Below are positions 1,321-10,311 of a stretch of DNA of 17,443 nucleotides, in pieces (within the stretch, counting starts at the first letter, position 1; the number at the start of each line of letters is the position of its first letter). The notes under the pieces were generated by a model. That model was not told the DNA's origin, searched no databases, and saw nothing but the letters and a program-made list of their open reading frames with translations. This DNA is from a virus (Duplodnaviria > Heunggongvirae > Uroviricota > Caudoviricetes), in the IMG/VR virus record IMGVR_UViG_2698536519_000009. One strand, given 5' to 3'. The position numbers and the translations under genes are program-made.

Positions 1321-1500
1321 CATAATCCCAATGATTACTCCCTGACAGGGTTCGTAGGCCACTCAATATCAGGTGCAGTTGATGTATCAACACGGTTCAG
1401 CAACACCCGATACTTTTTCCAGGCTTCCAGCAATGAGGTTTCTTCCTCCGTTGCAATTTCCAGATCTGCAGCATCCTGAAGCGGCGCAATATGCTCACTG
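1288..1500. repeat. Direct repeat copy B (~215 bp): hairpin plus 3' end of tfa
   Basis: Partner of 238..451. Together the two copies bracket the methyltransferase gene and its divergent promoter region. Confidence 0.8.
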
Positions 1501-1919
1501 GCTACCTGCATCAGGTTGTTTTTTGTTTCTTCCGCCTCCCGGATCCGGAACAGTTTTTCTGCTTCTGCATCTTTCACCCAGGTTGTGCCGTTCCACTTCT
1601 GAAACTCCCCTTCCGGCGATAACCAGGTAACATTTTCCGGTAATAAGCCGAGTTCAGAAATAAATAACGCGTCGCCGGAAGCTACGTCATAAACCGTTTT
1701 ACCCCGATGATCTTCAACGAGATGCCACGATGCCTCATCACTGTTGAAAACAGCCACAAAGCCAGCCGGAATATCTGGCGGTGCAATATCGGTACTGTTT
1801 GCTGGCAGACCTGTATGAGGCGGAATATATGCGTCACCTTCACCAATAAATTCATTAGTTCCGGCCAGCAGATTATAAATTTTTATGGTCCGTGCTTGTT
1901 CACTCATTCTGAATGCCAT
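1335..1919 (-). CDS. tfa: Tail fibre assembly protein Tfa
   Basis: 194-aa [57 protein letters not shown]..., strongly resembling the Tfa proteins of E. coli cryptic prophages and lambda Tfa. Translationally coupled to stf. Confidence 0.9.
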
Positions 1920-5814: not shown

Positions 5815-8800
5815 TCAGCTAATCGTGATGCCTGCAGTGGCTTTCTTCATCACCACAACCAGCAAATCGCTGATACTTGCTGTGGGATACCAGTTATTTA
5901 CCAGCCATGCTGACACCGAAAACTCCAGTGTCATGTGACCGTGACCGGCAGGCATATCAATAACACCACTGTAAATCAGCGTATTATCCAGCGCGGTACG
6001 GTTATAAATTTCAGCACCGTTTTTCCGCACTATCAGACGGCATGAGGAGTAAATATCAGTATGCTCTTTCTCATGTTTAGCGCCGCTGAATGCCACCGCC
6101 GGAATAACAATCTGCCGGTCAAACGGCTGATCGTCATAAACCCTGACGGTAATGGTTCCTGATGGCCACCGCTCCGGTGCACGGGAGTCCCGGGGGAAAG
6201 CTTTGCCCACTGTTTTAACGAGATCGCCTTCAATCTGGTTCGCGGACAATTTTCCCAGAACCCGACAGTTCTCGTTAATCGTGACGTTGTTGAGCGTCCC
6301 GGAGTTCGCATTCACGTTACCGCTGATATCGGCATTTTTCGCCGTCAGCCGCCCGTCCGGTGTCAGGGAAAATGCCGGAGGATTACCGCCGCTGGTAATG
6401 GTGGGAGCCGTCAGATATTTCAGGAACACTTCATTCATAAATATCTGATCGCCCTGACCAACAAACATCGGCTTTGTGTTGCCATTCGCAGGATTAATCA
6501 TCGCAATCCTGTCTGCCGCCAGCAGCACCTGACTCTGCATTCCTGCTGGCGTATTCTCAATACCGGCACCGATACCCGCAATATAAAGGCGTCCGTCCTG
6601 CATCTGCTGCAGTTTCACGGCCCACATGCTGTTCAGGTTATTATTTGTATCAACCTGAACTTTCTGTATCTGCTGGATTGCCGCACTCTGATTTTCCAGT
6701 TTTTTATTGACGGTCTGCGTGATTTCATTGCTGACATTCGTAATGGACGTCCTGATTTCAGCCAGGTCCGGCGCAAGCTGACCGTTATCAATCTGCGTCC
6801 ACAGCTCCTGGGCCAGATGTGTTTTCCCGATTTCTCCTTTGAAAAAATCCAGGTAACCTTCCGCATCATCGCTCGCCCGACCGACAGCCTCCACGAATGC
6901 CGATTTGCCAACAGTATTCACACTGCGGATATAAAAATAATAATCATGGCCCGGTTTGATATTGATACTGGCAGCTATCCAGTACAGCGCCGAGCCAAGA
7001 TAGCGGGCTGCGGTTTCAACCTGCCTGATATCCGCAATCCGCTTTTCCGAGAACCAGAACTCAAACTGTACCGTCGGGTCATAAACGGCAAGATGCGGCG
7101 TGGCGGTTATCTGAAAATAGCCCGGCGTCAGCTCAATCCGCGACGGTGCTGCCGGTGCGGCAATCCGGAAGGTGGTGGTGGCAGGTTCACCCTGCTGGCC
7201 ATAGCTGTTTATCGCCCGCACCGTCAGGGTGTATTCCCCGAGCGGCAGGCCGCTGAAACGGTGCTCCGTGTCTGCGGTGATGGCGGTGGTCACCAGTCTG
7301 GCATCCGTTCCCTTACCACTGGTCAGGCGCAGACTGAAGCGCACGCCCTTCACCACCCGCGGCGTGTCCCATTTAGCCTGCGCCAGATACTGGCCGTCAG
7401 CTGCGCTCACCTCCACCGTCAGGTGCTGTACTGCCGGTGGGATGACGCTGTTCAGGGAGCCTGACTGCGGCTCAAAGCGGGCACCGTTATCCACGATGGC
7501 TTCTTTTTCCGGTACGTGCTGCACCGCCGTGATGGCAAAGGTGCCGTCCGTGTTTTCCCGGATGGAGACACAGCGGAACAGGCGACGGCGCAGTGACGGC
7601 AGGGAGAGTCCCCACACCCCGTATGTCTCCACACCATCAGGCAGGGTACTGACCTGTATCCGGTCCGGCGCGGGGTGTTCGGTGATGTCCACACTCACCG
7701 GCTTACCGCTGCCGTTAATCAGGTTCACCGTGGCGGCACCGGTCTCCGGAAGTGTCACTTCACGGTCCAGCGTCAGGGTGCGGGTGGCAGCATCAATGGA
7801 CAGGACACGTCCGCCGGTCAGAGTCCCGGCATAGTCGTTATCACAGATTTCAATGATGTCACCGGGTGTGTGCCGCAGCCCCTGAGACCCGAGCGTGAAA
7901 TCCACCGTCTGCGTTTCCAGCAGTTCAGTCTTTATCACCCACAGTCCGGCACGGTGGGCCTGACCGCGGCTGGTACAGCCGAACGCGTCCATCTTCAGCA
8001 GGTTGCGTCCGTAGCGCAGTATGGCTTCCGGGTCTTCCACCAGTTCCGTGGAGGTCTGCCAGCCGTTCTGCGGGTCGGTGTAATTCACCTCCACCGCCGT
8101 GTGCCGGTCCTTCAGGGCACTGAAGCTGTAGCGGAATCCCACGCCGTTATCATCCACCACCACATCGCTGTTGGTGTACGGCCACACCACATCCGACGGG
8201 CGGTCCTGAACGAACGTCAGCGTCTGACCGTTCCATACCGGCATACAGCGCATCGCAGAGCAGAAATCACTGAGAACGTCCCACGCCTTACGCTGTTGTG
8301 CCAGGTACGCATTAAAGGTCATCCGCGGCTCTGTCCCCCCGAAACCATCCGGGACCGTCTGGTCGCAGTACTGCCCGATGGCATACAGCGCCCACTTGTC
8401 CACATCCGCCGCCCCCAGACGTTTTCCCATGCCGTAGCGCGGGTGAGTCAGCATGTCCCACAGGCACCAGGCCGGGTTGTTGCTGTATGCCGGTTTCAGA
8501 CTGCCGTCCCAGATACCACTGTACGTGCGTTTTTCCGGGTCATAGTTTGACGGCACCTGGATGATGCGACCGCGGATATGGTAGTTCACCGTCATCTGCT
8601 GGCCGCCGAACTGCTCCGCATCCACCTGCAGCCCCACAATGGCCGTGTTCGGGTAGCACTGTTTCACATCGATGATTTCGGTGTATGACGACCACAGCGT
8701 CTTATTCTGCAGCTGGTCCGTGGTGCTGTCCGCCGTCTCCCGGACCATCCGGATGTTAAAGGGCCGGGGAGGCAGATTATCCAGAATCACCGAGGCCAGG

Positions 8801-9288
8801 AACTGTGAGGTGGTCTTGCCGTTAATGGTGACGTCCTTTTCCGTCACCCAGCGGCCATTACGCTGTAACTGAATCAGAATCCGGACAGAGGAAGGATTAC
8901 GGTCGCCCTTTGACGTGGTCTGCACCAGTGACTGCACCCCGAAGGTAACCCGCAGGCGGTCAATGTTCGCGGACGTAATGGTGCGCGTCACCGGTTTTGC
9001 CTTCGTCACTTCCACGCCCAGTCCGGTTTCAGCTCCGGAGGACTCAAAGCCTTCCGGTGGTGTCTGCTCCTGCTCCCCGGCGCGCCAGACCGCCGTCACA
9101 CCGTGTATCACGGGATTGCCGTCCGTGTCCGTCAGTGGGGTTTTGTTCACCAGAATACTCTGCAGTCCCTTCACCGGACCTTCTATCGGTCCCTCACCAA
9201 TCGCATCAATCACACTCATCATCTGCGTGGATTTGAGATTATCCTTCGCCTCACGAGGCGTGTGTGCCTTACCGCCACCTTTTCCCAT
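5815..9288 (-). CDS. J: Central tail fibre / host specificity protein J
   Basis: 1157-aa [42 protein letters not shown]...; the N-terminal ~750 aa are highly similar to lambda gpJ. The coiled-coil-like region and C-terminal ~150 aa are divergent. RBS AGGGGAAGG precedes the ATG. Confidence 0.93.
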
Positions 9289-9394
9289 ACAGCCTTCCCC
9301 TGAATAAATTAACCGCCACTTGCCATTCCGTACAGAAGTCGGATATCCTTCGCCCGAAAAGCATGAAACACATTTCTGCCATGCTAAAGAGAAA

Positions 9395-9427
9395 CCCCGG
9401 TATCAGCAGATACCGGGGTTTTCTTTC
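9395..9427. terminator. Bidirectional intrinsic-terminator-like hairpin in the I-J intergenic insert
   Basis: ccccggtat cagcag ataccgggg: perfect 9-bp GC-rich stem with 6-nt loop (9395-9418). Followed by ttttctttc on the plus strand, and by tttctcttt on the minus strand (complement of 9386-9394). Confidence 0.7.
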
Positions 9428-9493
9428 ATGCCCACCGATAATCCTGTTGGTTAAAACCGGTAATGGCATAAAAATTCTGAATATCTTCACATT

Positions 9494-9521
9494 TTCACAC
9501 ACTGACTGTGGCGCTTATAAT
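9494..9521 (+). promoter_or_regulatory. Near-consensus sigma70-type promoter (TTCACA - 16 bp - TATAAT) facing away from the tail operon
   Basis: -35 TTCACA at 9494-9499 (5 of 6 to TTGACA), 16-bp spacer, perfect -10 TATAAT at 9516-9521. Predicted start near 9528; the plus-strand terminator lies ~70-100 nt downstream. Confidence 0.5.
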
Positions 9522-9591
9522 TTCGCTGCGTTAGTGTTTTTTTGCCCGAGTAACAAAAACAACTCCTTAACATTGATCTTCATTTGTCTGT

Positions 9592-9627
9592 CCCCGCAGC
9601 TCCGCGATCACTGCGGGATTTTTTTAT
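9592..9627 (+). terminator. Plus-strand intrinsic terminator at the end of the I-J intergenic insert
   Basis: cccgcag / ctgcggg stem (9593-9599 with 9611-9617) with an 11-nt loop, followed by attttttta (9618-9627). The U-run is on the plus strand only, so orientation is opposite to the tail genes. Confidence 0.6.
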
Positions 9628-9630
9628 GTT

Positions 9631-10311
9631 TTATCCCTGTCGCCCGATAACCACGACCGTTCCGCCCCCGCCTTCATCACGGGTGCTGATGTCCTGGGAT
9701 ATACGGCGGGAGCCAACCAGCATTTCCCCGTAAGGCACCGGCATCGGGTTCCCCTGGGCAATCATGTTATCCAGCGAGGAAAAGTACGTGTTCTGTCTGC
9801 CGTTATCCGTTGCGCGGTAATCCGGTGTTTTTGCCTTCGGGGCCAGCATCTGGGCCACACCGCCCAGAATCATGCTGGCTCCAAGTGAAAACAGCATCGT
9901 GGTGGCAGAAAAACCACCGGCTGCCAGGGCTGAACCCCATAACGCCATTGATGCCCCGGCAGTGAAGAAAGAGCCCACGATGGCTGCCGCCCCCAGCACA
10001 ATCTGCAGTCCACCCTTTCCGGCCCCGGCCAGTCGCGGCACAATATGGATGACCGTTCCCTCACCCAGCTGTTCGTGAAGACGGGCGTACACCGCCTCCG
10101 GTGCCGTGTCATAACCGGCAATACGTATCTGGTACCAGCCTTCGTTCATCTGACGGCGAAAGCCCGGCACCTGTAACGACAGCGCCCGGATGGCTTCCGC
10201 TGCCGTGTTCACATACAGGCTGAGGCGGCGGCCAAATCGTTGTAAATCCCCGTGAAGGCAGATGCGTGCCAGTGGCGGTGACGCCAGACAGAATGCGTTC
10301 GTCGTTGCCAT
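9631..10311 (-). CDS. I: Tail assembly protein I
   Basis: 226-aa ORF MATTNAFCLASPPLARICLHGDLQRFGRRL...; the central Gly/Ala-rich hydrophobic segment and ends match lambda gpI. Overlaps the 3' end of K by ~100 nt, as K and I do in lambda. Confidence 0.9.
   Translation of the reverse strand: MATTNAFCLASPPLARICLHGDLQRFGRRLSLYVNTAAEAIRALSLQVPGFRRQMNEGWYQIRIAGYDTAPEAVYARLHEQLGEGTVIHIVPRLAGAGKGGLQIVLGAAAIVGSFFTAGASMALWGSALAAGGFSATTMLFSLGASMILGGVAQMLAPKAKTPDYRATDNGRQNTYFSSLDNMIAQGNPMPVPYGEMLVGSRRISQDISTRDEGGGGTVVVIGRQG

Follow-up and report, generated by a model that had tools for sequence, protein, structure and literature searches.

The I-J spacer of a lambdoid prophage very probably carries pasB, a published Hfq-dependent small RNA, in an allele that differs at the centre of its predicted seed

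Introduction

What occupies the gap between the tail genes I and J of a lambdoid prophage when it measures 342 bp, as against 60 bp in phage lambda? The question is raised by the IMG/VR record IMGVR_UViG_2698536519_000009, a stretch of 17,443 nucleotides (hereafter the window) that represents the tail region of a lambdoid prophage, shown on the strand opposite to its genes. A preliminary description of this DNA, made from the letters alone, had taken the gap for a candidate small RNA locus. In our reading, the right half of this spacer, from about 9476 to 9626 on the plus strand, is very probably pasB, the gene of a trans-acting, Hfq-dependent base-pairing small RNA (sRNA), carried as a moron at the I-J junction. 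The RNA is already known and not new. It belongs to a group of five prophage sRNAs reported from EPEC E2348/69 by Pearl Mizrahi et al. (2021, PMC8550237); PasB, for 'pathogenicity associated small RNA B' (E2348CN_0006), is located between I and J of prophage PP6 in that strain (PMC8550237).

Results

The I-J spacer is a low-GC, non-coding insert

Pfam searches identified the minus-strand open reading frame at 5815-9288 as J, the tip attachment protein (Ig_J, FNIII-A_GpJ, Ig_GpJ_C), and the one at 9631-10311, on the same strand, as I, a tail assembly protein (Lambda_tail_I). Around this pair, Pfam also recognized L, M, the tape-measure protein, Lom, a tail fibre and a tail-fibre assembly protein. 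The GC content is 0.38-0.45 within the spacer vs. about 0.6 in the flanks, and this composition, together with the layout of ORFs and Pfam matches, bears out the earlier view of the region as a low-GC, non-coding insert of 342 bp. At the I-J junction of some phages an 851-bp insert with a sodC-like gene was found in the same antisense orientation; the presence of such cargo in other phages suggests that the junction is a moron slot. The features located in the spacer are collected in Table 1.

Table 1. Features of the I-J spacer in window coordinates.
Feature	Position	Strand	Basis or remark
I-J intergenic spacer, 342 bp, two independent modules	9289..9630		ORFs, Pfam, modularity across 84 spacers
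Left module, non-coding filler	9289..9464		Absent from E2348/69 and Sakai spacers (240 bp)
Hairpin, perfect 10-bp stem, 4-nt loop, pyrimidine/U-rich tails on both strands	9395..9427		Fold z-scores
CRP-like site TCTGA-N6-TCACA, upstream of/overlapping the -35 region	9476..9491	+	Half-sites invariant among alleles
pasB sigma-70 promoter TTCACA-16-TATAAT	9494..9521	+	11/12 consensus positions; same promoter in E2348/69
Possible 5′ leader of a 98-nt primary transcript, GCGUUAGUGUUUUUUU	9528..9542	+	Distance from -10 (inference), conservation
PasB sRNA, 83 nt	9543..9625	+	Gapless, 82/83 bases identical to E2348/69; A9569 instead of C
(A-R-N)5 run AGU AAC AAA AAC AAC (the CA-rich stretch of the preliminary description)	9549..9563	+	Shuffles, alleles
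Predicted seed ACUCCUU[A]ACAUUGAUCUUCA	9562..9582	+	Pairing with published PasB targets, mostly ribosome-binding sites; A9569 at centre
UUUGUCUGUC, directly upstream of the terminator	9583..9592	+	Predicted pairing with holin-upstream RNA of PP2 and PP5
pasB intrinsic terminator: invariant 7-bp stem, variable 11-nt loop, seven U	9593..9625	+	Fold, allele alignment

The right half of the spacer matches pasB of EPEC E2348/69

The reverse complement of the 23-nt northern probe for PasB (AATCCCGCAGTGATCGCGGAGCT; PMC8550237, Table S6) is found without mismatch at window positions 9598-9620 on the plus strand, where 0 matches were expected by chance. The published PasB coordinates are NC_011601.1 1466343..1466261 (minus strand, 83 nt; PMC8550237, Table S6). 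As the E2348/69 pasB locus aligns with window 9465-9650 with two differences, PasB can be mapped to the position given in Table 1, and the unit from promoter to terminator is 98-99% identical between the two loci. Synteny is also shared: in PP6 the gene is antisense to both I and J, as it is here, and its probe site, promoter and terminator are identical to those of the window. The E2348/69 locus differs in having a spacer of 240 bp instead of 342 bp, another J-proximal module with another hairpin, and a C at RNA position 27, inside the seed, where the window has A (9569). Sequence identity, the probe site, the antisense position between I and J and, in silico, an own promoter and a U-tract terminator were all found in the window.

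The wet-lab evidence comes from the E2348/69 locus, which differs from the window by one base inside the RNA and by its left module. There, PasB gave a northern band of the predicted size that was lost in the delta-hfq strain, in which DESeq2 log2FC values of -6.8 and -2.4 were obtained, and it was expressed more strongly under the non-activating growth condition than under the activating one (PMC8550237). RIL-seq detected 37 interactions (PMC8550237, Table S5), with PasB nearly always as the 3′ member of the chimera (RNA2), like true sRNAs (PMC8550237); among the RIL-seq rows examined, the single row that lists PasB as RNA1 mirrors the entry for its top partner. The partners in EPEC include napF, caiF, yijD, gshA, ydbJ, trmJ, the rpoS leader, ler/escE, map, perB/perC and bfp genes (PMC8550237). 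Since the RIL-seq 3′ ends at 1466260/1, equivalent to window 9625/9626, fall within the U-tract, the terminator in actual use is the one that had been predicted from the letters. The pasB match, together with the northern and RIL-seq data of E2348/69, thus bears out the proposal of an sRNA moron that has its own promoter and terminator and runs opposite to the tail operon. For the transcript itself, the expectation of a small RNA held, but its length had been put at about 100 nt and the published RNA (9543-9625) has 83 nt.

No Rfam 15 family reached the gathering threshold on the window, spacer included. At E<=10, a search of 9200-9720 gave only sub-threshold, terminator-driven matches (SSRC34_2, STnc310 and others), which we took as chance. 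In the E. coli genomes among the matches listed, no RefSeq annotation was present under the pasB locus.

Promoter, leader and terminator of the sRNA unit

The near-consensus promoter that had been noticed on the plus strand was confirmed, with the score given in Table 1. Three promoter-like sites were found in the region vs. 0.8 expected, and across 25 alleles the -35 region is invariant and the -10 box is mostly TATAAT. CRP-like sites number three in the window vs. 0.64 expected; the one at 9476-9491 is centred at -44.5 and may, with low confidence, be a CRP site.

The start predicted from the -10 box lies at about 9528, whereas the start given in the literature and that of the outermost RIL-seq read (1466344) correspond to 9542-9543. 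A 98-nt primary transcript from about 9528 is possible; its leader, which lies outside the published 83-nt RNA, would begin with GCGTTA (9528-9533), a near-invariant motif among the alleles. The discrepancy may be due to processing in the U-run, or to under-representation of the extreme 5′ end.

At the other end of the unit, CCCGCAG (9593-9599) pairs with CTGCGGG (9611-9617) and is followed by seven T (9619-9625), in agreement with the plus-strand intrinsic terminator proposed earlier. By analogy, the seven-U run could serve as the Hfq proximal-face site. In an RNAalifold consensus of 13 alleles the invariant 7-bp terminator stem was the sole structure and no covariation was detected, so the body of the RNA is best seen as unstructured. 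A hairpin between a U-run and an A-run, seen when a single 99-nt sequence was folded, was not backed by these 13 alleles, on which a structured 5′ domain cannot be claimed.

The CA-rich stretch reads as an A-R-N run and the predicted seed lies downstream of it

The distal face of Hfq binds A-R-N repeats. The CA-rich stretch of the RNA, for which a role as seed or sponge had been suggested, consists of five such triplets. None of 1000 shuffles equalled this run, and 12 of 13 alleles have three to five triplets at the same place, with differing letters. Given the preference of the Hfq distal face and the conservation of the run, we infer that the stretch is an Hfq distal-face binding motif rather than a seed. 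An A-R-N run upstream of a U-tailed terminator and a largely unstructured body are likewise features of class II Hfq sRNAs such as ChiX and MgrR, and with both (A-R-N)n and a 3′ U-tail present, PasB would fall into this class. Occurrence of A-R-N motifs in vivo is among the observations of Tree et al. (PMC4104026).

For the pairing analysis we used 14 published partners out of about 40 interactions, picked for narrow read windows and high chimera counts, with target sequences taken from E2348/69. Folding the whole RNA against long targets with duplexfold gave unrealistically long duplexes; sliding 14-mers and region-limited duplexes were used instead. The sliding PasB 14-mers showed an excess of pairing over dinucleotide shuffles only at positions 30-50 (98-nt numbering). 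For the corresponding seed region at 9562-9582, duplex energies, which ignore accessibility, averaged -17.7 kcal/mol vs. -12.6 kcal/mol for shuffles (z = -8.3), a value attained by 0 of 200 shuffle replicates, and nine of the 14 targets were individually significant (p<=0.05). Against natural flanks (equal-length windows of the same transcripts) the values were -17.35 vs. -10.7 kcal/mol (Wilcoxon p = 1.2e-4). The CA-rich stretch gave no pairing signal with the same 14 targets (z = +1.0 vs. shuffles; p = 0.79 vs. flanks), and its proposed role as a seed did not hold: the seed sits just downstream.

A motif shared by the targets of PasB was not reported in the original study (PMC8550237). In our predictions, the napF duplex has 16 contiguous pairs at -11..+6 (dG -25.4), the caiF duplex spans the start codon and that of yijD covers the Shine-Dalgarno sequence; further start-region duplexes are predicted for ydbJ and for the gene after E2348C_2648. 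These pairings suggest that PasB is likely to repress translation of its targets.

The most abundant PasB partner in the non-activating condition (774 chimeras) is an RNA between a SASA esterase gene and a class II holin gene of PP2, with a weaker equivalent in PP5 of E2348/69 (PMC8550237). No Rfam family was assigned to this holin-upstream RNA of PP2 and PP5 at the gathering threshold. Its predicted pairing site in PasB is the segment directly upstream of the terminator, in the region where a seed was proposed from conservation by Zhu, Shabalina and Storz (10.64898/2026.05.13.724894). The pairing hints at cross-talk between prophages.

The allele of the window differs from E2348/69 within the seed

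The only difference inside the RNA, A9569 vs. C in E2348/69, falls at PasB position 27, the single base that separates 'PasB-2' from PasB (Zhu, Shabalina and Storz, 10.64898/2026.05.13.724894); the same authors note that the E2348/69 sequence is not the commonest PasB variant (10.64898/2026.05.13.724894). We found the 83-nt sequence of the window unchanged in 847 of the 1207 E. coli records with any PasB-family match. The change from C to A weakened every one of the 14 tested duplexes, by 0.8 to 6.4 kcal/mol. Given this base's central place in the seed, the interactions mapped in E2348/69 may not all hold for the far commoner allele of the window, and the target set of the A9569 allele probably differs in part from the E2348/69 map.

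The sRNA unit belongs to a varied set of I-J spacers

We compared 84 I-J spacers, from 80 IMG/VR loci encoding the same I protein and from annotated records. They comprise 32 distinct sequences with 25 distinct sRNA units of 74-100% identity. A search of genome contigs with the I protein returned few loci, several of them under implausible organism labels (probable contamination), and was left unused for taxonomic range. Invariant or nearly so among the units are the -35 region with the upstream TCTGA-N6-TCACA, GCGTTA, the AUCUUC block, the 7-bp terminator stem and the U-tract; the seed centre and the terminator loop vary.

Three Hfq-CRAC peaks of EHEC O157:H7 Sakai, EcOnc22, EcOnc23 and EcOnc24 (Tree et al. 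2014, PMC4104026), seem to be members of the PasB family, a placement that rests on a coordinate calibration. EcOnc22, in Sp15, was seen at about 85 nt on a northern blot and was destabilised in delta-hfq; its homologues are EcOnc23 in Sp14 and EcOnc24 in Sp11 (PMC4104026, Table S2). The targets of all three were entered as unknown in a 2021 review (PMC7873438). The peak coordinates refer to an older genome version and were shifted by +137 to +146, a correction calibrated at one other locus (an Rfam AgvB hit). All three peaks lie in the I-J spacers of Sp15, Sp14 and Sp11, opposite in strand to the tail genes, and after the shift they fall inside PasB-like RNAs, starting 13-24 nt past the predicted +1; the PasB-like units occupy 2902836-2902926, 2676767-2676857 and 2166817-2166907 of NC_002695.2. 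They share with PasB the binding to Hfq, the location in the I-J spacer and the antisense orientation, and with the unit of the window the -35 region, the ARN run, the AUCUUC block and the terminator stem; they differ in having about 74% identity over the unit and another seed centre (CUCCAUAACGUUAAUCUUC). In the literature on EcOnc22/23/24 and PasB we found no statement of their equivalence.

The left module is separate and contains a probable terminator hairpin

Of 5426 complete E. coli genomes, 1446 have the left module at an identity of at least 99%, and it occurs at 100% identity beside PasB alleles that are only 79-82% identical to that of the window. The full 342-bp spacer is shared by O26 and O145 strains, and ATCC 25922 carries the left module. 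Judged by these sequence comparisons, the left half (9289-9464) is a separate mosaic module and not part of the sRNA unit.

Within it, CCCCGGTATC (9395-9404) pairs with GATACCGGGG (9409-9418), flanked by the tails TTTTCTTTC on the plus strand and TTTCTCTTT on the minus strand. The U-runs on both strands agree with what had been noted before, but the stem, then given as 9 bp, has 10 perfect pairs. Fold z-scores were -6.4 (plus) and -5.5 (minus), and 0 of 200 shuffles folded as well. The hairpin looks like a bidirectional intrinsic terminator, which may insulate the pasB promoter and/or stop non-antiterminated transcription into J; attenuation of I-to-J transcription, as suggested in the preliminary description, is plausible. 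In lambda biology, Q-modified late transcription would read through such terminators. One natural variant (L037) has lost the hairpin by deletion. The short-type spacers have a different hairpin at the same relative place, an operon-strand terminator with a compensatory C-G to T-A change among alleles. With long and short spacers taken together, an operon-strand stop between the pasB promoter and J seems to be conserved.

Discussion

Alternative readings of the spacer

Besides a trans-acting sRNA, the spacer could in principle encode a small protein, a sponge for another sRNA or an RNA that acts mainly in cis. The protein would be the 66-77-aa minus-strand hypothetical protein of phage ASU11 or the product of a 128-aa plus-strand ORF. 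The reading frames themselves exist (9269-9502, minus, and 9264-9650, plus) and one is annotated in ON416862, yet both cross the spacer through strong terminator hairpins, and natural spacer variants carry indels of 1, 1, 5 and 47 bp that interrupt them. Moreover, no Pfam match was obtained for the 66-aa ORF annotated in ASU11, the ATG at 9469 has no Shine-Dalgarno sequence upstream as read from the letters, and the region is missing altogether from short-type spacers. We found no credible ORF in the spacer, as had been stated from the outset, and regard a coding function as extremely improbable. An anti-sRNA of the AgvB/AsxR kind, whose CA-rich stretch mimics GcvB targets and so titrates GcvB, is scarcely more probable. 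Prophage anti-sRNAs with ARN-rich 5′ regions do exist, and AgvB and AsxR (RF02702, RF02703) resemble PasB as short, Hfq-binding, prophage-encoded, multi-copy RNAs with ARN motifs, a conserved 3′ part and a variable pairing part; a duplex of -9.2 kcal/mol is also possible between AACAAAAACAAC and the GU-rich R1 region of GcvB. However, when the CA-rich stretch was shuffled, 273 of 500 versions equalled or surpassed this pairing with GcvB, and neither GcvB nor any other core sRNA is a partner in the PasB RIL-seq rows examined, though GcvB is abundant on Hfq there. PasB acts as the 3′, sRNA-type partner of mRNAs, whereas AgvB and AsxR sponge core sRNAs (GcvB, FnrS) and occupy another locus, the moron site that follows PR′ beside the stx or lysis genes (PMC4104026). 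There is no sequence or covariance-model similarity: the RF02702 and RF02703 models had no match at the gathering threshold in the window, nor at E<=10 in 9200-9720, and AgvB was recovered in the Sakai control at 96.5 bits. None of the three marks of the AgvB/AsxR group (Rfam model, PR′ moron site, pairing with core sRNAs) was found here. The sponge idea fails on the shuffled GcvB pairing, the lack of a core sRNA partner in those rows and the different place of AgvB and AsxR with their unmatched models, and the suggestion that this RNA is one of the known prophage anti-sRNAs falls with it.

An action mainly in cis deserves more weight, although we consider it unlikely. After induction, PasB would then pair with the late tail mRNA at its I-J spacer, leading to RNase III or RNase E cleavage or to altered translation of J, with the hairpins as attenuators that set the I:J ratio. 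Such a role is in line with the perfect complementarity of the RNA to the I-J spacer and the antisense position of its gene within the tail operon, with the operon-strand terminator that separates the pasB promoter from J in all spacer types, with its compensatory change, and with the top RIL-seq partner, which is itself a prophage late-region RNA. Against it stand the approximately 40 trans partners detected by RIL-seq and their pairing through a defined seed; no chimera with the I or J transcript appeared among the RIL-seq rows examined. Lambda manages with its 60-bp gap, sodC in the same slot of other phages speaks for cargo rather than tail-gene control, and one natural variant does without the hairpin at 9395.

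Proposed mode of action and significance

For the trans-acting sRNA that we favour, the following course can be proposed. With a near-consensus sigma-70 promoter and an intrinsic terminator of its own, pasB would be transcribed against the direction of the tail operon, and the lysogen can thus make PasB without any need for late transcription. Hfq would probably grip the RNA by its 3′ U-tail and the (A-R-N)5 run, leaving the single-stranded segment at 9562-9582 to pair with mRNAs, mostly across Shine-Dalgarno or start-codon regions. The bidirectional terminator of the left module would most likely shield the sRNA promoter and block non-antiterminated transcription into J. The conserved operon-strand terminator and the pairing with the holin-upstream RNA leave room for a phage-directed role as well, in which co-resident prophages would communicate over late and lysis genes.

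As the sRNA was previously published, the main value of the present analysis is a correct annotation of the locus. Beyond the published work, it adds a supported seed at 9562-9582, a commonest allele that is altered in the middle of this seed, and the link to EcOnc22/23/24; the A-R-N reading and the modular spacer are further, modest additions. It is quite possible, if still short of probable, that PasB is one allele of a larger family of I-J-junction sRNAs that includes EcOnc22/23/24, with a fixed chassis (promoter with CRP-like site, ARN run, AUCUUC block and terminator), a diversifying 7-9-nt seed centre and a partly retargeted predominant A9569 allele. If this is true, most E. coli that carry 'PasB' would regulate a partly different set of genes than E2348/69 does, and, as the partners of PasB in EPEC include ler, map, per and bfp transcripts, such allele-specific targeting could bear on virulence regulation.

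PasB partner RNA and PasB-like units in other prophages

The most abundant RIL-seq partner of PasB, with 774 chimeras, is an unannotated RNA of prophage PP2 of E2348/69 that lies upstream of a holin gene, and a homologue of it was found in prophage PP5 (L112). No family matching the PP2 holin-upstream RNA was found in Rfam. On the PasB side, the pairing with this partner is predicted to involve nucleotides 9583-9592 of the window.

In O157 Sakai, the Hfq-CRAC sRNAs EcOnc22, EcOnc23, and EcOnc24 (Tree et al. 2014, PMC4104026) are all located within I-J spacers and, once a coordinate shift is corrected, their positions fall inside PasB-like units sharing approximately 74% identity with the unit of the window. 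The targets of these three sRNAs are listed as unknown (PMC7873438).

Features in the window and in related loci (window coordinates unless an accession or locus is given)
Feature	Position	Strand	Remarks
PasB partner RNA (L111)	NC_011601.1 743482-743711	+	PP2, between SASA esterase and class II holin gene
PasB-like unit (L114, Sakai Sp15)	NC_002695.2 2902836-2902926		EcOnc22
PasB-like unit (L115, Sakai Sp14)	NC_002695.2 2676767-2676857		EcOnc23
PasB-like unit (L116, Sakai Sp11)	NC_002695.2 2166817-2166907		EcOnc24
CRP-like site	9476-9491	+	TCTGA-N6-TCACA, just upstream of pasB -35 region, overlapping it
Intrinsic terminator	L001 1931-1954 (E2348/69)	tail-operon	GCAGGCACC..GGTGCCTGT, then TGTTTTTG
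Candidate second small transcript	9320-9428	+	weak promoter-like site, then two hairpins
Rfam IS009 (RF02111)	1378-1576	-	full-length match, 225.7 bits
ORF, 222 aa	612-1280	+	SAM-dependent methyltransferase domains

Organization of the I-J spacer

The half-sites of the CRP-like sequence at the pasB promoter are invariant among alleles and the spacer between them is variable. With its centre approximately 44.5 nt before the predicted start, the site has an atypical position; the window contains three such sites in all, this one included, vs. 0.64 expected. In short-type spacers, an intrinsic terminator is positioned between the pasB promoter and J; its equivalent is present in the Sakai-type spacers, and a compensatory change from C-G to T-A was observed among its alleles.

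Of 5426 complete E. coli genomes, 1446 carry the left module of the spacer (9289-9464) at no less than 99% identity, and diverged copies of it do not occur; the sRNA alleles adjoining it vary by up to 20%. In one natural variant, L037, a 47-bp deletion removes part of this module, including the hairpin. As judged from the sequence, the module possibly encodes a second small transcript: two hairpins ending in the 9395-9427 terminator lie downstream of a weak promoter-like site (TTGCCA-18-TATCCT, 9320-9349, plus strand), and the fold z-score for 9356-9428 is -7.1.

At the I-J junction of L088 (2182-3032), and likewise in L091 and L013, pasB is replaced by an 851-bp insert; the phages that carry it have a near-identical I gene. 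The insert ORF, oriented antisense to the tail operon, is presumably a Cu/Zn superoxide dismutase gene (sodC-like), as recognised from its translated sequence. Contigs L004, L006, and L013, labelled as Streptomyces flavalbus, Parendozoicomonas haliclonae, and a Clostridiales MAG, contain E. coli phage tail DNA (I protein identity 90-98%), most likely as contamination of those assemblies.

Other elements in the window

IS009, a frequent neighbour of PasB (Zhu et al., 10.64898/2026.05.13.724894), is matched inside the tail-fibre assembly ORF (1335-1919, minus strand; Pfam Caudo_TAP). The methyltransferase-domain ORF, which lies past the tail-fibre assembly gene and is encoded on the other strand from the tail genes, may represent another moron.
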